Shown piece after piece: positions 7,883 through 58,357 of a stretch of 64,000 bases of DNA (positions within the stretch are counted from its first letter, which is position 1; each line of letters begins with the position of its first letter). A program made the translations under genes and the position numbers. Under the pieces are notes generated by a model. The model did not search any database. It was not told where the DNA came from and worked only from the letters and a program-made list of their open reading frames with translations. The stretch spans positions 310,001-374,000 of the forward strand of contig BAAIJX010000016.1 of the NCBI GenBank assembly GCA_054600435.1. Direction: 5' to 3'. This DNA comes from Neophaeotheca triangularis. Taxonomy: Eukaryota.

Positions 7883-9826
7883 TCATACCCTCTCGCCCCT
7901 CTCCGTCTCAGCAAGAAACACCGACCCATCCTTTCCCCCCTCCGCTCCAGTCCTCCTGGCAACCCCATCAGCCTCTTGCACCATGATCGGCGCGCCAGGT
8001 TGATCCTCTCCCAGCGGAGGCGCAGCCTCCTCATCAACCTCACTCACAGCCGCACTAGCACCGGGCGACTCCTTGCGGTCCCTACGCTTCCGAAACAAAT
8101 CCTCCACGAAGCGATAAACCGCCAACGCGACCCCAAAAGCCAGCACGGCACACGCCACGCTGAAAGCCCGTCGGTACCTTGGTCGATCGTCCTGCCGGAA
8201 AATCTGCGCGCCGTAGATGCCCGCGATGTTGGCGCCCATGATGACCAGCGCCATTGCCAAAGCTCGTTCTTCCGAGTCGGTGCAGGTCAGGGACATCCAG
8301 GTGATGTTGAGCGGGTGCGCGAAAGTGCCGAAAGTTTGCGTGAAGATTGCGCCGAAGTAGCGGACGCCGCGGTTGTTGAGTTCGGTGAAGATGCGGTTGA
8401 AAATGTAGCCGAGTAGATGGCAGCTTAGGCCTGCTATGACGGTTTGGCCGCGGACGCCGCTGGGGGGATTGGGTGAGTCGGGGGGTTGGTTCAAGGGGTG
8501 GGTGGGCGTGCGACTTACTAGTGGTCCGAGACGTAGCTGAAGGCGAAGGAGACGGGGATTTGCAGGAAGAGACCGACGGACGCGAGGGCGTTGGCGGACA
8601 GCGCACCGTAGCCGAAAGAACGCACGATTGTCGGTGCGTAAGTATCGAAGGCTCGCTGGGGACCGTTGTTGCAGAGCGTGATGGCGAAGTGTACCCACAT
8701 TCTCCAGCCGGTGAACTTGGCGAGGTAAGTTGAATGCTTGCGAGGGAGTGAGAAGAGGTAAGACTCACCAATTTCTTGAAGGCGGTAAGTCCGATACGCT
8801 TCTTTTTCTGCCCCTTCATGGGATCGTCCATCAGAATGCGGGTGTTGAGGATGTGGATCTCCCTGTCGCTAAACACCTTCCACTTCGGCAAGAAAGTTGG
8901 GTGGGGCTTTCGGAAAGAGTCAGGAAGACAACAGCCCAAGACGATGCCGCTCAACACGGTGAAGCCTCCCATCAATACGAACAGCCACCTGGAAGAATAT
9001 GGTCAGCAGACTGGAGATGTTAGAGCTTGATCGGAGAGAGAGAGAGCGAACGTACCACCAGCCAGGTTTTCCTGCCACTCCACGCATGTGCAGAATCCCA
9101 TACGCAAGCAGCTTTGCCGACGCCTGGCCCGCTTGGTTACCGAAATAAAATACTGGAATTGTCAGATCCCCAACACCTTGGCTAGTTTACGATCTCCTTA
9201 CTCATAACTCGTTTGGCAGTCTCCTTACGGGTATACCACGTCGACAGAGTCCACAAGCCCCCTGGTATGAAGCCGCTCTCGGTGATCCCCAGGATAAGTC
9301 GCGTGGAGATGAAAGCTGCGTAGTTGGTCTGAAAAGCCTGGAAGGTGCTGACTATGCCGAAGAGGAAGAGCTGGAGTGTCAGCCATTTGCCCGGTCCTAC
9401 GCGGTAGAGTGCCATGTTTGCAGGTATTTCGAAGAGGACGATTCCCAAGGAGAGCATTTGCTGGCCGATATTGAATTGATTCTGGTCGATGCCGATGTCT
9501 TCCATGAAATTATCTGTAATGGCGTTGGCCATGTTGCCTCGATCGAGTTCTGAAGAAGAGCTGTGAGTTTGCATGTTGCATTATTGGGATTGGGAGGGGC
9601 GTACGCAAGCAGAAAAAGCCGAGGGTCAACAAGGGCATGATTATGAGGTCGAGTCTAGAGAAGTCAGCTCGAATCCGACAAAGCCGTCGCGGTATGGACG
9701 CCCGTACTTCCGTTTCGCCTTCTTCTCTTCCTCAGGAGACCAGTCGCAAGTGTACCTCGCCGCCAACTCTTCCGGCGACGGTCCTTGGTCCTTGCCATCC
9801 ACTGTGTGCGAGTCCGGTCTACCCAT
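7883..9826 (-). CDS. MFS transporter, Dal5/allantoate-nicotinate (ACS) family, 7 exons; introns 9655-9707, 9550-9604, 9153-9201, 8989-9055, 8716-8768, 8460-8518
   Basis: Spliced reading gives KRKLDLIIMPLL, QLDRGNMANA, FEIPAN, RLILGITESGFIPG, WYTRKE, PGWWWLF and GAQIFRQDDRPRY. All six introns are GT-AG. Confidence 0.9.
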
Positions 9827-12614
9827 GATTGCGGACGATGGAAAGTGATCAGATTATGACCGGGGACAGATCTGAATCTAAAATCAACTCAACGAGATAC
9901 CCCCAACCTTAACTACACCCTCAGCATCCCAAAAACTACAAGGATGCAGAAATGACACCTTTGTGTCTTTGACAGCGAGTACGCACATTCCAAGAAAGCG
10001 CTGGAGCTGGGCGCGAAGCCACCTCCGTGCCATTGGTATACCAAGGTCAGCCAAGTGAGCACAAACACCTCCAAACGTTGGCTCAAGAATCAAGAGCAGC
10101 AGCAAACAGTACCTGATGGAAAGCGACACCCGCCGCAAGAGATGTCGTGATCTCACGTATCACGCCCCCCCGGCGATTTACACGCAAACACACCTACGCT
10201 ACACGGTAGGATGGGTAGATTCGAATATCACGGCGCATATGTCGCCATTTGCGGTGTCGATGGCTTTCGAGTCCTTTTCATGCAGTGCTTGATGGACGAG
10301 CCCAATCGGCGGTTGTTTGTCAAAGAAAAGCCACGTGCGTTGCGTCGCTTTTGGTGGATGTTGACATGCTTGGCGCTTCGCACGCAATACCAAGGAGTTG
10401 TTATCGATGAATTTATGCGGCGCCTTTTGCTTGGGTTTAGTTGATGGCTTTTTGTACGACGATAAGGGGAGTGTTTGGATGATTTTAGTTACGTGGGCAA
10501 GTGGGAAGGGTACTGGGAATGGCCATGTCGCCGCCTCTGTTGTATGGCGTGATATGGCTTGGTGTGAGAAGTATGGAGATGAGTGGTACATTGTCGCCAG
10601 CGGTGTATCCTTTGCTTCACGCTATTCTTCCCAAATTGCTTCATCGACTTCATCGTGGGTTAGGTATGGAGGTATCGAGGTTGCTTTTACAAGTACCTTA
10701 TCGACTCGAAGATGGCAGCATTTCCTTAGTCATCGGAGTACGCGAACCTTGCTTCGCATCTCTCTTCACTCGATATTGACAACTTACCCTCAGATGGGTA
10801 TGGGTAAGGCTCGAAACAAGTAGAAGGAGGGGCAACGACGCAACCTGTCTCCCCATATGCTAACGATTCTACCACCGTCTCAGTTGATCAGCCCCGACTC
10901 TCCAACATGGCCACGCTCGCTTGGGCCGTATTCCACTCACTGGACCTTCAAAAACTGTAACCGCTCTAAGGATGCAGCCCTCACGACCGACCAAAGCGGC
11001 AAACCCACTCATCTAGCAGCTCCTGCTGAGGGTCTACACCCCGGCGGCCATAACATGGCGGCGCCGCAAACTTCCCCCGGGCGAGTTTCTCATGGCTGGC
11101 TTCGTTGAAACCCGCAATCTCGCACTCCAGCAGCTATTATGCGGCCTACGACTGGCTAGACCGAGTTATATTTCTACCTGGAGGCTGCAGACGCCGTTTG
11201 AGACATTTATCGTATCGGAGAGCGGTGTAGACAAGGACGTGGCGCGCGGTCAGTGAGTTTTGGGGGACACTTCAAGACAGGTATGTCGATCCCTCTCCTC
11301 CGTCCATTGCTAGACGGGCTAGTATAGTACCCGATAGAGGTCGACTCGACTCGCAGTATTTCTTCTTCCAAGCTGTTTTCCCCCTGGACACATATCTACA
11401 TCACACTCCCTAGCAGTTGACACTCTCTCTCACAACTCGCACTCCGCTCTTGAGACCGGTGAGCAGAGCATCTCAACCCCCAATGCAACCACTTCTACAC
11501 TGCATCCCTGTGTTATCCCATTTCAAACATAGCTTGTTACTTCCCTGCTCCCGACTCTCACTTCGACCTTAGGGTAGGTAGCAGGATATGACATCCCAAA
11601 ACCCGATGCAGGTGCATTTCCGCTGCTTTCCTTTGGCCGGGAGGGCTGCATCGCGGTGACAACGCACTATGCGCTCTTTCCCGACTCCCATTTTGATGTT
11701 GGGAGAGCAGGACATAGCATCCCGTGAGTAAATGCAGATGAGTTTACGTTGCATGTTCTGGTCGGGTAAGCTGCATCGTAGCCAATGCGCCATCTTTTCT
11801 ATCAGTCTTGATAATCTTTCTAGCTTTTATGGTCAATTTTAAACTCATGCCGTGATTGCAGGTTACGATGGTTGTATCCTGCTTTTCTTGGGGTAGGCCG
11901 AATCCGCACTAGCTAGAAGAAAATGCAAGTACGCCTACTGTGTCTCTAGAAGGGACAACCGTATGTCGCGAGATGTGCACGAAAAACTGCTCTCGGGTTC
12001 CTCGTCTCGGGCCTCCTCGACCGTGCTGCCTACGATATTCAGGACATTGTCATTGTCCTCTTTGTGAGCCAAATCAGTCAAATACCAGCTGTTCGCATTG
12101 GGAAGGCACGTCGTTCTTTGTCTTTCCAACGTCACTGCATCGATGCTCTAGCCCTCACAAGTTGGTGTGTGTCTTTTCGTTGGCCTTTCGCTACAACAAG
12201 GTTGCTAGAAGGTTGCTCGGTGACGGGGCTACAATGTCCACAGGTCAAATTGCGTTGAATGGCGCTCAATGGTACTCAATGGGCCGTGATGCCTCAACAT
12301 TTGCTCAAATCCGATGCAAAGAGTATAAGTGAAAACCAGACTCAATTTGCACCCAAAAATTATTCCGAGTAAACTGCTCGACAGAGCAAGCTCTAGAGTA
12401 TCACCTGGTCGTGGCGCACAACCAATGGCTACAAATGACTCTACGAATGTTCAAAACATACCCTTCTTAAGAGGTCTGAATTCAGCTTCTTATGCGGTCA
12501 AAAAAAAATTAAAGTGCAATTTCCTGTATGCCCATATGCTTATGCGTGGTTCTAAGGCCGGGGGTAGCCTCAAAAAGCCCACTTGAAACCCAAAAATCGG
12601 CGAACCAGACAAAT

Positions 12615-12624
12615 AAAAAAAAAA
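12615..12624 (-). terminator. RNA polymerase III terminator (T10) for the tRNA gene
   Basis: First run of 4 or more T on the tRNA sense strand, about 85 nt downstream of the discriminator base. Confidence 0.7.
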
Positions 12625-12630
12625 GATGGA

Positions 12631-12700
12631 TTGCAAGATTGTGGACAATCTCGTAATGGATTTAGACGGTAGTTTGCAAGTCTGTTGACAGACTCGTCAT
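12631..12700 (-). repeat. Two tandem 27-nt hairpin repeats (period 43 nt) in the tRNA 3' trailer
   Basis: Minus strand ATGACGAG-TCTG-TCAA-CAGA-CTTGCAA (12674-12700) and ATTACGAG-ATTG-TCCA-CAAT-CTTGCAA (12631-12657). Confidence 0.8.
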
Positions 12701-12709
12701 ATTCAAGGC

Positions 12710-12872
12710 TGCCTGGACTCAGAATCGAACTGAGATTTGAGGATTACTTGAAGTAATCAGCCTGATGAAGCATGCTCATATATCTAGAATTTAGTTAGCG
12801 ACTGTAGCAGATCAGAGCAGAATTTTGAAGTGACTCACGAGACCTCCGTCCTAACCATTAGACGATCCGGGC
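12710..12872 (-). tRNA. Elongator tRNA-Met(CAT) gene with two introns: spliceosomal-type 12784-12838 (between C34 and A35) and canonical tRNA intron 12745-12780 (37/38)
   Basis: Predicted mature 72-mer GCCCGGATCGTCTAATGGTTAGGACGGAGGTCTCATAATCCTCAAATCTCAGTTCGATTCTGAGTCCAGGCA. It has a D-arm GTCT/GGAC with GG, a T-arm CTCAG-TTCGATT-CTGAG, anticodon stem GAGGT/TCCTC with U31-U39, loop CT-CAT-AA and discriminator A. There is one C4-A69 acceptor mismatch. tRNA fold is high confidence; Met identity depends on the first intron being removed. Confidence 0.85.
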
Positions 12873-13234
12873 TGTGGATTGATGGTCGTTGGGAGTCAAA
12901 ATTTAATATGACCTTTCAATTTTGTGTGTTTTCTTAAATGCCTCGGTCGTGCACCTTTTGGCACGCTAATTACGGCACACTCACAGGCGCTCTGCAGACT
13001 GATAAGCTTCTTCTTATCGGGTGAGCTTCACAAGAAAGTGAAAGTGCCAGCTGGCTGACATCAGAACAAGTTTCGAAACATCTGGACACATTGCACGTCT
13101 CTAACATTCCCTCGAGGCCTTTTCTGTTCAAAGTAATATCCTCGAGAACACTACAAGCAATCAAATGTACTAAGGATACCCCTACCGACTTCCCTTAGTC
13201 GATCAAAATCACCCGTCTGCCGTATCACGAAAAA

Positions 13235-16200
13235 ATGTTACCCTCAATCGGGGGCCGCAATGCAGCCCTCTCCCCCTTTACTCTCTGCATCGCCCTCTTC
13301 CTCCTCCTCGCCACCACCGCCAACGCCGCCTCTAGCGTTTTAGGCATTGACTTTGGCACCCTCAACCTCAAAGCTGCCCTCGTAAAACCCGGCATTCCCC
13401 TCGAAATCGTCCTCACAAAAGACTCGAAACGCAAAGAAGCCGCGGTCGTAGGTTTCAAACCCTCCCGGGACGAGAAGAACAAAATCATCGCCGAAAATGG
13501 CAAGTTCCCGGAACGACTATACGGTGGGGATGCACTGGCATTGCAGGGTAGGATGCCCGGGGAGGTCTTCCCGAATCTGAAACCGCTGTTGGGACTATCT
13601 GGGTCGGAGGCTGCGGAACGCGATGTTGAGGCTTATAGGTCGCGGAATCCTGCATTGCAGGTTCAGCACGATGGGGACCTTGGTACGACGGTGTTCAAAA
13701 GTGAGGCATTCACCGAGCAGGAGCAACCGTGGAGTGTGGAGGAGCTGTTGGCGATGGAGCTGGCGAATATCAAGCGTAATGCAGAGGGGTTGGCGAAGTC
13801 AAGCGTGGAGGACGCAGTCGTCACTGTGCCTGCATTCTACACTGCGGACGAGAGGAGGGCAATTGAGACGGCCGCGGATCTGGCTGGGTTGCATGTCATG
13901 TCGCTCGTGAGCGATGGTTTGGCTGTTGGGCTGGACTACGCGAAACCTAGGACCTTCCCAATGGTGACTTCGGGCGAGCAACCTGAACATCACATTGTGT
14001 TCGACATGGGAGCTGGATCTACCACAGCCACCCTTCTACGGTTTCAGGGCAAGAGTGTTAAGGATGTCGGACGTTTCAACAAGACGGTTCAAGAGGTTGC
14101 TGTGGTTGGTGAGGGCTGGGACCGCACACTCGGGGGTGATGCACTGAACAGTGCCATTGTCGAGGACTACATCAACAAATTCTTGCAAAAGTCGGAGGTT
14201 AAGAGTCAGGGAACAACTTCCGAGGGGCTCAGAAAGAACGGCAGGCTTATGAGCAGGCTGTTCAAGGAGGCTGAGAAGGCCCGCCAGGTACTGAGTGCGA
14301 ATTCGGACACCTACAGCTCGTTTGAAGAGCTTCTGCCAGACATCGACTTCAAAGTTAAGCTCACGAGGGCGGAATTCGAGCAGCTCACCGAAGGCCTTGC
14401 TAAGCGTGTTACTGTCCCTCTGGAGGAGGCATTGGCCGCGGCGAAGCTTACCATGAACGATATCAACAGTGTCGTGCTGCATGGAGGCGCCATCCGTACG
14501 CCTTTTGTTCAGAAGAAACTGGAAGCACTTGTTGGTGACAATGCCAAGCTACGGACCAACGTTAACGCGGACGAGTCTGCTGTTTTTGGTGCTGCATTCA
14601 AGGGTGCTGGTCTCTCGCCTTCCTTCCGTGTCAAGGAAATCAGAGACAGCGACATTGTAGGATACGCTACGGGCATGACTTTTACCGATGGCAGCAAGGA
14701 TCGCCGCCAGGTTCTATTCAGCCCCACCAGCCCTGTAGGCTCTGGTGCAGCCACCAAACAGGTCGCCTTCAAGGACAAGGATGACTTTTCTTTCGGTCTC
14801 TTCCAGGTCGTTGGCGACGTTGACCGGCCCGTCTCGCGCGTTCAAACCACCAATCTGACTGATGGCGTCGCTCAACTGAAGGAGAAATTCGGCTGCGAAA
14901 AAGACGACATTAGCACCAAGTTCAGCATCAAGCTCAGCAATATCAATGGCCTGCCTGAAGTCCTCTCCGGCTCAGTAAGCTGCGAAGTAGAGGGGTCAGG
15001 AAAAGCAGGCGGTATGATGGACTCTGCAAAAGACTGGCTAGGATTTGGGAAGAAGAAAGACCAAGAAGCTGAAGATGAAGAAGACGCAGGGCCGACTGAA
15101 GAGGTAGAGGCCTCAACATCCTCTGCGACCAGCGATGCCTCTTCGGCCTCCGACTCCGCTTCCGCCAGCGCCTCCAAAGCTCCCGAAGCCCCCAAGAAGC
15201 ACACGGAATCCGTCATGGTCTCTTTCACCAGCACATCGCAGGGCAACCCCCAACCCAACCCCTCTCAGATCAAATCAATGAAAGACCGCCTCGCAGCCTT
15301 TGACCGCAGCGACGCCGCGCGCTTCGCCCGTGAAGAAGCCCTCAACATACTCGAATCCTATACCTACTCGACCCGCGACTTCCTCGCCAACACCGACTAC
15401 ACGTCCTTCGCAACCGATGCTCAACGAGAGGCCATCAGCAACCTTCTAACCAGCACCCGCGAATGGATGGAGCAACCGGGACAAATGGCTTCAGCAACCG
15501 AATCCGCCTTCAAAGAGAAACTCCAAGCGCTCAAAGACCTCGTCACGCCGATCCAAAGCCGCCGCAAAGAAGAACTCGCTCGTCCGGAGAAAATCACCAC
15601 TCTGCGCGACAGCCTTTCCAAATCCGAAAAATTGATCACCAACATCGAATCCCAGCTCTCGCGCGCCTCGAGCGAATCCAGCACTTCCACATCCACTCCA
15701 AGCACCACCTCTACATCCACCGTCGACGACCTCGAAGACGGCGACGAAACAGCTTCCCCTTCACCTAAACCGTCCGACCCCCCGGCCTTTAGCACACCCT
15801 ACACCGACTCCGACCTCGCTGACCTCCGCGATACCCACGCCAGCATAGCACAATGGCTGACTGACAAGGAAAGCGAGCAACAAAACCTGCCCTCGCACGA
15901 GGAACCCGCGCTCCTGGTTACAGACCTCGAAGCCAAAAGCTCCCAATTGGGGCTTATAACACGCAGAATCCAAGACAAAAAACTGCAACCAAAACCGAAG
16001 CCCAGGTCTTCTTCGTCCAAGAAGTCGACGAAGAGTAAGAGTGCTAAGTCGTCCAAGACTAGCACGGCGGATGGTGAGGACAGCACGGATGGGCCGCCGA
16101 TTGTGGATTTGGATATGGAGGCTTTGAAGGAGGCATGGAGGGAAGGTGGGGAGGGGGTAGATGAGGAGGAGATTTTGAGGCTGGTGGAGGAGGCCAAGGC

Positions 16201-16261
16201 TAGGGCTGGGAAGGGGGAAGAGGTTGTCCCTGGCGAGGAGGGGACGCATGATGAGCTTTAG
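13235..16261 (+). CDS. LHS1: ER-lumen Hsp70-family nucleotide exchange factor Lhs1/GRP170 (HYOU1)
   Basis: 1008-aa ORF with signal peptide, VLGIDFGT, VKPGIPLEIVLTKDSKRKE, FDMGAGST, VNADESAVFGA and C-terminal HDEL. Confidence 0.95.
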   Translation: MLPSIGGRNAALSPFTLCIALFLLLATTANAASSVLGIDFGTLNLKAALVKPGIPLEIVLTKDSKRKEAAVVGFKPSRDEKNKIIAENGKFPERLYGGDALALQGRMPGEVFPNLKPLLGLSGSEAAERDVEAYRSRNPALQVQHDGDLGTTVFKSEAFTEQEQPWSVEELLAMELANIKRNAEGLAKSSVEDAVVTVPAFYTADERRAIETAADLAGLHVMSLVSDGLAVGLDYAKPRTFPMVTSGEQPEHHIVFDMGAGSTTATLLRFQGKSVKDVGRFNKTVQEVAVVGEGWDRTLGGDALNSAIVEDYINKFLQKSEVKSQGTTSEGLRKNGRLMSRLFKEAEKARQVLSANSDTYSSFEELLPDIDFKVKLTRAEFEQLTEGLAKRVTVPLEEALAAAKLTMNDINSVVLHGGAIRTPFVQKKLEALVGDNAKLRTNVNADESAVFGAAFKGAGLSPSFRVKEIRDSDIVGYATGMTFTDGSKDRRQVLFSPTSPVGSGAATKQVAFKDKDDFSFGLFQVVGDVDRPVSRVQTTNLTDGVAQLKEKFGCEKDDISTKFSIKLSNINGLPEVLSGSVSCEVEGSGKAGGMMDSAKDWLGFGKKKDQEAEDEEDAGPTEEVEASTSSATSDASSASDSASASASKAPEAPKKHTESVMVSFTSTSQGNPQPNPSQIKSMKDRLAAFDRSDAARFAREEALNILESYTYSTRDFLANTDYTSFATDAQREAISNLLTSTREWMEQPGQMASATESAFKEKLQALKDLVTPIQSRRKEELARPEKITTLRDSLSKSEKLITNIESQLSRASSESSTSTSTPSTTSTSTVDDLEDGDETASPSPKPSDPPAFSTPYTDSDLADLRDTHASIAQWLTDKESEQQNLPSHEEPALLVTDLEAKSSQLGLITRRIQDKKLQPKPKPRSSSSKKSTKSKSAKSSKTSTADGEDSTDGPPIVDLDMEALKEAWREGGEGVDEEEILRLVEEAKARAGKGEEVVPGEEGTHDEL

Positions 16262-17226: not shown

Positions 17227-18815
17227 CTACGGCTCTTCTCGAACAGTATCAGCCTCATACCTCTTCCCCCTAAAAGCCCAGACGCCAAAATTCCCCGCAG
17301 TCACATCGCCCGGATCGAGGTCATTCAAATCCCAGCGCAAACTCCTGAAACGGTTTTCCCCCGGCTGCAGCAGCACATCCGCTTCCCCGCCACTATTAGC
17401 TTGCACCCACTCGATATCGCGCTGCATGTCGAAGTCGGTGTAGCCCGTGCAAATGACGGGGACTTTGGTCTCGAGTAGCTGGGGCAGAGTTTCCGCCCAC
17501 TCGTGAGAACTAGCTGGGTGGCCTAGGCCTGGGTGGAACAGCACAAAGGCGTCGAAATATGGGTCGTAGGGTGCGAAGTGCTGGGCTGAGTGGAGTGTGT
17601 GGTAGTAGTCGACGTATGTGGAAATTTTAAGACTGCCGCCGAGGCCACGGTCTTCGACAACGGCGCCGAAGGGGTTGGAAGCGTTGCGTTCGGGGAGTGG
17701 GAATTCATGCTCGCGGTTAGACATTGATTCCGGCCCAATGAAGATTAGGTGGAAAGTGCTGCGGGGGAAGAGATGGGAGAGTTGCAGCCAGACTTCGCGG
17801 GGGAGGGAGGATTCGGCGCGCGCGCCGAGGATGAAGAGGCGGATTGGTGGGGGGTTGGGGCGGAGGCCGGAGATGGAGGTACCTGCGCCTGTCCGGGGTG
17901 GGTGGAGGGTGTAGCGAAGGGCTGATAAGGGAAGAAGCTGTTAGTTGGGGTTCGGGGGGGCTGTGGAGAAGGGTACGGCTTACCGCTCAGTGATTTCAGG
18001 CCCTCGGCTGTTAGTCTGCCGTCGCGGCCTTTCATGCTGTAGGGGCTCAGTTCGTGGAGGACGCTGCCAATTGTTATGGGATAGGTGAGTAGCCTCGTGA
18101 CCTGCCTCATGGGTCGTTCCTCATTAATGGCGTTGAACTCTCGCGAGAAGAGGAGGGTGTCCCAATTCGTCATGTTCACCATTGCCTCATCTATCTGGGG
18201 TCCCGGGTACTCAAACTCAGGAAAGAAGCGTCCACTGACTAAGTCGTGATCATCTTCGTTGATTTCCCGGAGGACATCGCAGAGCTCTAAGTGTGATTCG
18301 TAGTCATCTACAAAGTGCTCCGCCGAGCATGAAACGGGAATGCCGCAATCGGGACATTCGTAGCGGACGTGGGCGGGGGGTTCAGCGCCTGTTTTGAGCG
18401 ATTCTGGGTCTCCTGGTGATGTGGGAGTGCGGGTTGCACCGTGGGCTGGGTGAGGGCAGTAGGCATTTTGCCGGATTACTGCTGCGCGTTTGCGGATGAT
18501 GGGGGACGGCGAGTTGGTGAAGGAGTGGAAGAGGTTGTTGGGTTTGAGGAGGAGGCGGGATTCGTCCGGTTGGGAGGAAGGCTTGTCTGTTCTCCTGCCG
18601 CGTACATCCAAGTCGGGGGGAGTCTGCTTGGCTTGCGATGTCGAAGGTTGTGCAGCTCTGTGGGAGGAAGCATTATGTATTCTGCGGGTTTGTAGAGGCT
18701 GTTTCGAGGTGGTCGTGGAGAAGACTCTATGCGCTGTTCGAGTCGAGGGAGATGATGATTTTGCAGACGACGTTGCCAGCCGTAAACAGCGACTGCAAAT
18801 GCTTTTCGAAGACAT
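17227..18815 (-). CDS. MSS51: Mitochondrial COX1 translational activator/assembly factor Mss51, 2 exons; intron 17922-17983
   Basis: Mitochondrial-type presequence, zf-Mss51-like segment (CPDCGIPVSCS...H...CDVLREINEDDHDLVSGRFFPEF), TYPITIGSVLH, spliced GLKSLSALRYTLHP, GARAESSLP and FHPGLGHP. Confidence 0.92.
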
Positions 18816-19197
18816 GGTCGGGGGTCGGGGGTGGGTGGTGGTGTTGGTATAAGAGGGGTGCAGTCGTCCAGTCGAGCTCGAATGTCGTCCGGGTCATCGA
18901 AGGAAGCCGAATGGGGATGGTCCGCCGCATATTGATTGGCAATTGATTGGAACGCAGCCAAATGTTAATGAATATGACGGAGATATGCCCCGCGTGCTCC
19001 GAGCTCCGCGACTTCGCGCGTCTATCAAAAAGTTGCCGACACTCATGGTTCGACCCTCACCTCTGAAACACTCCCACCTCATTCTACCCATTCTCCACCC
19101 TCACATCTACTGCGCAGTGTCTGTCGCATAGCAGTTCCAACACTCTCTACCTTTACGCGCCTACGGGCAACCCGCTCCCTCACCTTCATTCGCCGAC

Positions 19198-55777: not shown

Positions 55778-58357
55778 ATGAACGACCTGTGAGTATGAGC
55801 ATATCACTAGGAAGCTGAGGTGCACAAGGCGACGGGCGAGAGTAGTAGCTGATCTCATCCAAGTACACCAGATGGCTCAAGAGACGAGCGGGTGATGCCT
55901 GGAACGGACGGCCAAAACGGGCAATTTGCGACCTCATCCGATGGCCAGGCAGCAGCGGCACCCATCACTGGTGCACCCCAAGTTGACTCCAAGCCCAAAG
56001 GGCGAGGCATGCTTGGAGACGTTCTGTAGGTTCTTTAGTGATTTGTAACGCACTGCAGCTCTCTAATTGTCCTCAGAAACCGCCAAGACAACGCGAGCAC
56101 AATGGCCATCCGACATGGACACACTGGACCCTACGCCAGCCCCGATGCCGAAGACCCTACGACTGAAAGATCCTTCCCCCTGGCAGGAGGCCAAACATCT
56201 TCCACCTCGCAGGCAGATGCTACACCTGATGCTACGGATATCAGCAGTTACGATGGCAGTTCAGTACCCCTCTCCTCCGGCACAGACAGCTCGCTCGGTG
56301 GCGGCAACGAGCTCCCCGTCTTTGCTACCTTGCAAAACCAAAGGGGCCCGCACATCACGGATACCGCCAACAGACTTGATCCTCACATCCCTGGCGAGTT
56401 CCCAAGCGACAATGGCGAAGATCGTCATGACCACTCAGGGTCCGCAATCGGCCCTGCCGCTACTGCTCCAAGCACAGGCTACGGAGCGAACCAACTTCCT
56501 TCTTCGAAGAACGGCCTCGACTATTCCTCCGCTAGCGAAGCACCAACCCCAAGCGCCTCCGAATCTCCGCACGTAGCTGACCCCATGTCCCAAGTCCCCA
56601 GCAACCAACACAACTACGGCAGAGACGCCGCAATCGCTGGGGGAGTCGGAGCAGCGGGTTACGGGGCGTACGCGCTCAACAAAGACCGCGACACACCACA
56701 AGCTGGCGAGAACACTCAGCCAAACGACGGCGCGTACCCAAGCTCCACCGCAGTAGAAGAGCCCATGTCGCAGTCCAGCCCGCGCTACCCGTACGGTGGC
56801 GGCGCAGCTATGGGCAGCAGCGTGCCGAGCAGTCTCCAACGGGCGCCTTCATCGCAATACTCGCAGTCACCGGCGCCCGTCCCTGCCGAAGAGCCCGGTA
56901 GCGAGCACAACTACGGCCGTGATGCCGCACTAGCCGGCGGCGCTGGGGCTCTGGGGTACGGAGCCTACAAGCTAGGCCGGGATCGCAGTGACGCGGAACC
57001 AGCCACCAACGCTTTTGGGAACGCTCCTGTCGAGCCCGCTGTTCAGAGGGAACCGGACATGCCCAGGAGCCAGCCCATGGAGCCCGACGCTCCAGGTGTC
57101 CCTTATGCTGAGTTTCCTATCGAGCAAGCACATGGTCTCAACGCTCCTGCCGATCTCGACAAGCAGCGGGTGCCTGAGTCTCAAGACGAACATAACTATG
57201 GCCGCAATGCTGCTCTTACGGGTGGTGCTGGGGCTGCGGGTTATGGTGCTTATCAGTACGGCAAGGACCGGGACGGCAACCCGGCGCCTGAGGACTTGGA
57301 CCCCCAGCAGCCGACTGAAGCGCAAGAGGAGCACCATTATGGTCGTAATGCTGCTCTCGCCGGAGGTGCTGGGGCGGCTGGTTATGGTGCTTACCAATAC
57401 GGAAAGAGTCGCGACACTGACCCTGCATCGAACGATTCAAGCAACGCCGACCCCAATACCGTCGCACCGCAACAAGCTTCGTCCTCGGAATATCCTACGA
57501 CGGACGAAGAAAAGGACCACAACTACGGCCGCGACGCAGCAGTAGTCGGCGGTGCCGGAGCAGCAGGAGCTGCAGCCTACGGTGCAAAGCAATACTACGA
57601 CGACAAACAGCAAGACCACGACGCCGCGCACGACGCCGAGCTGGAGAAAGAGCGAGCCAAAGCGGCGGAAAAAGCCGAAAAGCAACACGACAAGGACATC
57701 AAAGCCGCTGAGAAAGAGCAACACAAACACGAAAAGGACGCCGAGAAAGCTGAAAAGAAGCATGCCAAGGAAGAGAAAGCAGCCGAGAAAGAGCAGAAAC
57801 AACACGACAAGGACGACAAGAAGCACGCCGCTGCCGTCGCCGCTTCGGAGAAGGAGGAGAAGAAACACCAGAAAGAGCTGGAGAAGCAGAAACATGAAGA
57901 GGAGAAGGAACGCTACAAGCAGGAGGAACAGCGCAAGAAGGAAGAAAAGGAACGCCAGAAACAGCTCGAGAAGGAGGAGAAGGAGAAGAATCCCTCCCTC
58001 ATCCATAAAATCTTACATCCCGGCCACCATCACGGTAAGAAGGAGGACGAGGACCAGACTGCCGCCGACGACAATGAGCAAGCTACCGCCGCCCCTGCTG
58101 CTGCTGCTGCTACTTCTCGCCAGAGCAACGAGGATTCTCGCAAGAGGGACGAAGATTTGCAGCAGAAGGACTCGCACCAGTCGGGCCATTCGAAGCGCGA
58201 TCAGCATATTAAGCAGCCTGGTGATGACGACGAGGAGGAGGGGAAGGAGGGGGATGAGGGACTGGAGGGGCCCGGGAAGTATCAGATTGGCCATGCGGGG
58301 GTGAAGACGGCTGCGGATGGGAAGGGGCATAATCGGTTGCATAAGGAGCCGAAGTGA
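55778..58357 (+). CDS. Repeat-rich hydrophilic/disordered protein, 3 exons (55778-55788, 55864-56025, 56077-58357)
   Basis: Two GT-AG introns link MNDLTPDGSRDERVMPG...GDVL to the 751-aa ORF. Five H(N/H)YGR(D/N)AAxxGGxGAxxYGA-type repeats, TDTANRLDP and IPGEFP motifs, and a K/E/H-rich helical tract. Confidence 0.82.

Follow-up and report, generated by a model that had tools for sequence, protein, structure and literature searches.

Can the anticodon of a tRNA be split by an intron of the kind that the spliceosome removes from mRNA, and if so, does the gene still yield a tRNA? This question is raised by a tRNA gene of 163 nt on the minus strand (12872 to 12710) of the window, the whole 64,000-nt stretch of DNA that we analyzed. 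Read directly from the sequence, the gene consists of five pieces, in the order exon, insert, the trinucleotide ATA, insert and exon, and their positions and signals are as follows.

12839..12872, minus strand: tRNA exon 1, 34 nt, tRNA positions 1-34 by the Rfam alignment, comprising the acceptor 5′ strand, the D arm, the anticodon-stem 5′ strand and C32-T33-C34 at its end
12784..12838, minus strand: insert 1, spliceosomal-type, 55 nt, between C34 and A35
12833-12838, minus strand: donor GTGAGT of insert 1, as read in the sequence
12794-12799, minus strand: branch site GCTAAC of insert 1, in which the presumed branch nucleotide is the A at 12795, 11 nt from the final G of TAG
12784-12786, minus strand: acceptor TAG of insert 1, as read in the sequence
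12781..12783, minus strand: micro-exon ATA, 3 nt, which would be A35, T36 and A37 of the rebuilt anticodon loop
12745..12780, minus strand: insert 2, canonical-type tRNA intron at 37/38, 36 nt, starting with TATGAG and ending in GTA
12710..12744, minus strand: tRNA exon 3, 35 nt, A38 to discriminator A73 by the Rfam alignment, comprising A38, the anticodon-stem 3′ strand, a 4-nt variable loop, the T arm (TTCGATT loop) and the acceptor 3′ strand

This five-piece layout had been proposed in the initial annotation of the locus, and we reproduced it exactly, with every statement about the sequence confirmed. The 55-nt insert at 12784-12838 carries the fungal donor, branch site and acceptor attributed to it (GTGAGT, GCTAAC and TAG), slicing and pairing place the 36-nt insert at 37/38 with an antepenultimate G for C32, and the longest run of T in the 163 nt is two; hence the gene has no T4 run, as had been claimed for insert 1, despite its AT-rich inserts. 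The tRNA body is in good order apart from a single mismatch in the acceptor stem (C4-A69). All other stem pairs hold, the anticodon stem contains a T31-T39 opposition, the A and B box regions are intact, and inspection by eye found the conserved tRNA positions T8, A14, G18, G19, A21, T33, G53, T54, T55, C56, A58 and C61 in place.

Detection by standard tools depended strongly on their settings. With permissive filters, the Rfam tRNA model (RF00005) aligned end to end with 12710-12872 on the minus strand at 37.8 bits, against a gathering score of 29, the alignment carrying a 95-nt insertion in the anticodon loop; RF00005 was also the sole Rfam family at E <= 0.05 in 62 kb of the window. With default filters at the gathering threshold, Rfam returned nothing in the whole 64-kb window, and ARAGORN in default mode predicted 0 tRNAs there. 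When introns were allowed, ARAGORN found one gene in the window; it scored the native sequence 104.2 as Thr(cgt) and assigned it a long variable arm besides an intron of 80 nt. Removal of insert 1 in silico changed the call to Met(cat), and removal of both inserts left a 72-nt Met(cat) tRNA with a score of 109.8. Taking out 91 nt at 37/38 instead gave Thr(cgt), again with 109.8, so that ARAGORN is unable to choose between the two forms. The initial annotation had predicted that routine annotation would report tRNA-Thr(CGT) with one 91-nt intron, and that the isotype score would shift toward Met upon removal of insert 1, a comparison made here with ARAGORN; the Thr(cgt) call and the change to Met(cat) came out as predicted, whereas the intron was reported as 80 nt with a long variable arm and the equal scores of 109.8 express no isotype preference. 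Standard tools miss or mislabel such genes, and further cases may hide unannotated in fungal genomes.

The signals of insert 1 are those of a U2-type spliceosomal intron. Its 5′ splice site, GTGAGT, fits the pattern GTRAGT, and its 3′ part combines a CTRAC branch site (GCTAAC, with the A 11 nt before the G of TAG) with a YAG acceptor. As a local reference, we used a loose pattern scan restricted to candidates that bridge two open frames, which gave 34 rows representing 30 distinct intervals. The short class among these, which we take as inferred introns, comprises nine intervals at eight places, 50-62 nt in length, with CTAAC, CTGAC or CTAAT located 9-19 nt before the AG. At 55 nt, insert 1 falls in the middle of this range, in line with the earlier claim that it has the size of the window's mRNA introns, and its signals are better than most of theirs. 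At the sequence level it is indistinguishable from a local spliceosomal intron. Its predicted structure is also slight: the minimum free energy is -3.3 kcal/mol (z +1.25), and 182 of 200 shuffled sequences fold at least as well.

To estimate how often this arrangement would arise by chance, we generated 400,000 artificial sequences with a Markov model of the non-coding DNA nearby. The simulated probability of GTRAGT at a fixed place was 4.7e-4, and that of a branch site and YAG which delimit an insert of 40-80 nt and place a purine at the rebuilt position 37 was 7.8e-3. The product, for an intron-like insert directly after C34 followed by a purine at 37, is 3.6e-6, or 2.3e-7 if the anticodon must be CAT; the pattern of insert 1 is more than chance. 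Over both strands of the window, the strict pattern GTRAGT/RCTRAC/YAG has four matches compared with 1.6 +/- 1.2 in 40 simulated windows, which is no window-wide enrichment, and the corresponding frequency of about 1e-5 per position bears on the per-position chance estimate alone.

Two other origins or roles of insert 1 were considered and rejected. Smith-Waterman comparisons with insert 2, the exons, the upstream sequence and the trailer were no better than with shuffled sequences (p 0.13-0.78), which speaks against local duplication, and the insert is absent from the frame-bridging candidates, as it should not be if it were a frame-bridging intron of a minus-strand coding gene. A repeat search and self-BLAST found no second copy of insert 1 in the 64-kb window and no repeat that involves the locus. 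The sole internal repeats seen in the window by self-BLAST are a 92-nt direct repeat (57174-57265 and 57315-57406, 79% identity) and a weaker 47-nt pair nearby.

Insert 2, by comparison, looks like an ordinary tRNA intron. It is located at 37/38 once the 55 nt are removed, and the combined 91 nt also lie at 37/38 if the gene is read as Thr. The hallmarks of eukaryotic tRNA introns, as given in PMC10275265, are complementarity to N32-N35, an anticodon-intron pair between C32 or U32 and an antepenultimate A or G, and a 5′ splice site in a loop. For insert 2, the 5′ splice site is in a loop, the antepenultimate G lies opposite C32 for a possible anticodon-intron pair, and TATGAG pairs with the rebuilt CTCATA through six Watson-Crick pairs. 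The possible C32 pair is the same in the Met and Thr readings, and TATGAG can likewise form six pairs with CTCGTG, the unspliced sequence, four of them Watson-Crick and two G-U; the complementarity noted in the initial annotation is therefore real, but it does not serve as an argument for the rebuilt anticodon.

What distinguishes the two readings is the base next to the anticodon. Phizicky and Hopper (PMC10275265) state that t6A is invariably found at A37 of tRNAs with NNU anticodons. Removal of a single intron would leave G37 beside U36, where a tRNA-Thr(CGU) should have A37. Since G37 breaks this rule and the intron-like pattern would have to be a coincidence, Met is favored over Thr. The features of an elongator tRNA-Met (CAT, A37, a 7-nt loop and a standard cloverleaf) appear only after removal of 12784-12838, and the earlier claim that this exact excision rebuilds CAT with A37 proved correct, with a 7-nt loop and the ARAGORN call of Met(cat). 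We take the rebuilt loop, together with T31-T39, to match eukaryotic elongator tRNA-Met. On the sequence, the gene is best identified as a tRNA-Met(CAU) of the elongator type that has a canonical intron at 37/38 and an anticodon split by a spliceosomal-type insert.

The tRNA gene is located 363 nt upstream of the LHS1 start codon in divergent orientation, and three neighboring features are relevant.

13235-16261, plus strand: LHS1, the neighboring gene, an Hsp70 of 1008 aa ending in HDEL
12625..12709, minus strand: 3′ trailer, 85 nt without a T4 run
12615..12624, minus strand: T10 run, the earliest T run that could stop Pol III, 85 nt beyond the discriminator

The LHS1 protein also indicates the host. 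Its closest relative, encoded on an assembled contig of 10.5 kb, has 86% identity over the N-terminal 480 residues, and the closest named relatives over the same residues, at 72-74%, are from Meristemomyces frigidus and Oleoguttula mirabilis, both members of Teratosphaeriaceae (Mycosphaerellales, Dothideomycetes). Judged by LHS1 similarity, the host is a Teratosphaeriaceae-like Dothideomycete. In species of Mycosphaerellales, Collemare et al. (PMC3609843) describe intron gains that exceed losses about tenfold, with new introns, many of them introner-like elements, losing structure and shrinking to ordinary size.

For comparison across relatives, an alignment of 34 LHS1 proteins led to 80 related loci with a total of 676 kb, the best of which is 73% identical over the LHS1 segment that aligns best. 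ARAGORN with introns allowed predicted a tRNA at none of the 80 loci (0/80). A blastn-short search of the exons, both inserts and both flanks against the same loci gave only words of 11-17 nt at E >= 0.18, and Rfam in evalue mode had 0 hits in the 12 closest loci with their upstream flanks (61.7 kb), while the same mode, as a positive control, recovered the tRNA gene in 62 kb of the window. With no tRNA at the loci of sampled relatives, which reach at most 73% LHS1 identity, the locus is not old in this position; the missing syntenic tRNA is silent on splicing itself. A 22-nt pattern of the 5′ half (20 specified bases) had 0 matches in metagenome contigs, a collection that holds at least 132 fungal LHS1 stretches, and a 25-nt pattern of the 3′ half had 0 matches in prokaryotic genome contigs. 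An 18-nt pattern of the 5′ half had two matches in prokaryotic genome contigs, both in contigs of bacterial metagenome-assembled genomes (MAGs) with no tRNA at the site, and these were set aside as chance.

Taken together, we put at roughly 0.85 the probability that this is an elongator-type tRNA-Met(CAU) gene which already possessed a canonical 36-nt intron and was since invaded, exactly between C34 and A35, by a 55-nt GT-AG intron in a Teratosphaeriaceae-like host. Its present state is a separate matter: this is either a tRNA that, as the first of its kind, depends on the spliceosome, or a copy put out of action by a recently acquired intron. Our preferred account, held tentatively at a little under even odds (about 0.45), is that the intron entered one of several tRNA-Met gene copies not long ago, and that this copy now supplies no tRNA-Met or at most a trickle. 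We thus infer an origin by intron gain and a tRNA output that is now low or absent. Under this account, Pol III would not stop before the T10 run, which lies 85 nt beyond the gene. The tRNA endonuclease, which measures from the tRNA body, would on its own cut after G37 and before A38, the first of these cuts lying 3 nt into insert 1, and the product would be a CGU/G37 molecule that fits neither a Met nor a normal Thr tRNA. Any tRNA-Met would come from whatever fraction of transcripts the nuclear spliceosome reached first.

Several observations are consistent with a silent copy: the C4-A69 mismatch, the 85 nt past the gene before any T4 run occurs, and the absence of syntenic copies from the relatives sampled. 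The host order is known for rapid intron gain, and tRNA families are redundant, so that a disabled copy costs little. There is also no printed precedent that we found for a spliceosomal intron in a tRNA, and PMC12530127 (2025) and the 2023 review PMC10275265 assign spliceosomal introns to Pol II transcripts and tRNA introns to TSEN, and present the two as unrelated systems. On the other hand, decay beyond the one mismatch is absent. The tRNA invariants are intact, the three splice signals match the consensus in full, the borders of the insert are placed with single-base precision, and the AT-rich inserts contain no T4 run. Such intactness is what selection for two-step splicing would be expected to leave, and a dead copy would show it only if the insertion were very recent. 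Moreover, fungal Pol III (U6) and Pol I (rRNA) genes bear spliceosomal introns, which makes Pol III transcripts possible substrates.

The latter points lead to the strongest alternative, a gene that works in two steps. In this scheme the nuclear spliceosome, forming a lariat at A12795, would join C34 to A35 and rebuild CAU with A37, after which TSEN and Trl1-type ligation would remove the second insert to give a functional elongator tRNA-Met. We regard this as possible but on balance doubtful. It would account for the exact restoration of a 7-nt loop with CAT and A37 upon removal of 12784-12838, for the tRNA-intron hallmarks (PMC10275265) of the 36-nt insert that remains, for full-consensus signals in an insert with little predicted structure, and for 163 nt with intact tRNA invariants and no T4 run. 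The order of events is also plausible: the SEN complex is cytoplasmic in budding and fission yeast (same review), so a nuclear spliceosome would act first. The intron of S. pombe U6, a Pol III gene, is spliced, and many fungal ncRNA genes have such introns. If the insert arrived by reverse splicing, the site would necessarily be one that the spliceosome can reach. These arguments are countered by the exon context, TC|AT, which is unlike a usual splice junction. The donor is part of the anticodon arm in an RNA that folds fast, TSEN can process the unspliced form too, and the C4-A69 mismatch, a terminator that follows only after an 85-nt trailer and the absence of a printed tRNA precedent from our searches weigh here as well. 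Transcripts that escaped the spliceosome could be cut by the endonuclease alone to give the CGU/G37 tRNA, in which case one gene could have two anticodons depending on which machine arrives first.

A second alternative, which we judge improbable, is a tRNA-like sequence inside an unannotated minus-strand Pol II transcript, for instance one divergent from the LHS1 promoter, where the GT-AG intron would be spliced and the tRNA perhaps released. The divergent position 363 nt upstream of the LHS1 start and the 85-nt trailer without a Pol III stop are compatible with it, and it would explain recognition as a spliceosomal intron, yet insert 1 bridges no open frame, the ORFs tested between 9884 and 13194 contain no Pfam family, and the A and B box regions are intact. 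Least probable of all, and very unlikely in our view, is a tRNA-Thr(CGU) gene with one 91-nt canonical intron whose first 55 nt resemble a spliceosomal intron by coincidence: the native ARAGORN call, the score of 109.8 shared with the Met form, the CTCGTG-TATGAG pairing and an anticodon-intron pair common to both readings agree with it, but G37 next to U36 contravenes the A37/t6A rule (PMC10275265), the intron-like pattern has a chance of about 4e-6, and the rebuilt loop with T31-T39 presumably belongs to elongator tRNA-Met.

Returning to the invaded tRNA-Met gene, the closest parallels to insert 1 are the introns of fungal non-coding RNA genes. PMC5855946 lists spliceosomal introns in U6 (a Pol III gene, with removal by the spliceosome in S. 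pombe), in the U6 genes of many more fungi, with up to four per gene, in Rhodotorula U1, U2 and U5, and in rRNA genes; the initial annotation had likewise named U6 snRNA and rRNA as fungal non-mRNA genes with such introns. Fungal U3 snoRNA genes often carry them too, with two in a Baudoinia species (PMC5832005), a genus that is also among the LHS1 relatives. Insert 1 shares with these introns the GT-AG borders and branch site, an ordinary fungal length and a structured non-coding host gene, which for U6 is likewise transcribed by Pol III; the known introns are species-specific insertions with interiors that are otherwise unconserved. The difference is that the host here is a tRNA gene that also carries a TSEN-type intron, which would place two unrelated splicing systems in series. 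The determinants of intron insertion into ncRNAs are called unclear in PMC5855946, and tRNA does not appear in its list. A tRNA does not belong to the spliceosome, and the insertion can therefore not be put down to closeness to the active site. 

Compared with canonical TSEN introns (PMC10275265), the 36-nt insert is alike in its 37/38 site, its complementarity to the anticodon loop and its antepenultimate G opposite C32, whereas the 55-nt insert lies at 34/35 inside the anticodon and has spliceosomal signals in place of those features. The introner-like elements of Mycosphaerellales, as described in PMC3609843, resemble insert 1 in the order of the host (by LHS1 similarity), in complete signals and in base-exact insertion, but they are multi-copy, longer than regular introns and stably folded. 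Insert 1, at 55 nt, with a z of +1.25 and a single copy in the 64-kb window, lacks these traits within the window; it is possibly a degenerated introner-like element, in keeping with the loss of structure and size reported in that paper. Some tRNA genes of Archaea and Cyanidioschyzon merolae (PMC3978253) likewise have more than one interruption, with one outside 37/38, but those introns are bulge-helix-bulge endonuclease substrates, and by eye no such motif is apparent at the borders of the 55-nt insert: for a 4-bp helix with 3-nt bulges, the required pairs would be one G-C, one G-U and two mismatches.

In the main texts of the papers that we searched, no spliceosomal intron is described for any tRNA gene, just as the initial annotation had known of none, and four exon stretches of 13-17 nt, searched as DNA or RNA in the full-text literature, had no match. 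Spliceosomal introns in non-mRNA genes are known; what is new, as judged from the sequence, is a spliceosomal-type intron in a tRNA gene beside a TSEN-type intron. Should processing follow the two-step scheme, no earlier tRNA would be known to have a spliceosome-assembled anticodon, and the transcript would be a naturally occurring Pol III pre-tRNA in the mRNA splicing pathway. If the copy is dead, spliceosomal-type introns can still land base-exactly in a tRNA gene, and the locus would bear on the routes of intron gain (reverse splicing, retrohoming and introner spread) in an order where gain is very active.

Some further features of the surroundings were recorded. GC content drops to 0.41-0.44 around the tRNA, which lies in a gene-poor stretch of about 3.5 kb (9600-13200) between a minus-strand MFS transporter and plus-strand LHS1; ORF fragments of the transporter span 7883-9580 on the minus strand, with no recognizable gene between there and the tRNA. 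A TATA-like ATATTAAAT is located at 12901-12909 on the minus strand, 29-37 nt upstream of tRNA position 1. The trailer contains two stable hairpins (12675-12699 and 12634-12653) and has a fold z of -3.1, with 1 of 200 shuffled sequences folding as well. Each hairpin is followed by the same short motif ending in CTTGCAA. These elements may be two copies of a palindrome to which a protein binds, or may belong to a long trailer of the tRNA. Beyond LHS1, an MSS51-like gene at 17227-18893 on the minus strand, with the Pfam families zf-Mss51 and MSS51_C, has an apparent intron of 62 nt at 17922-17983.
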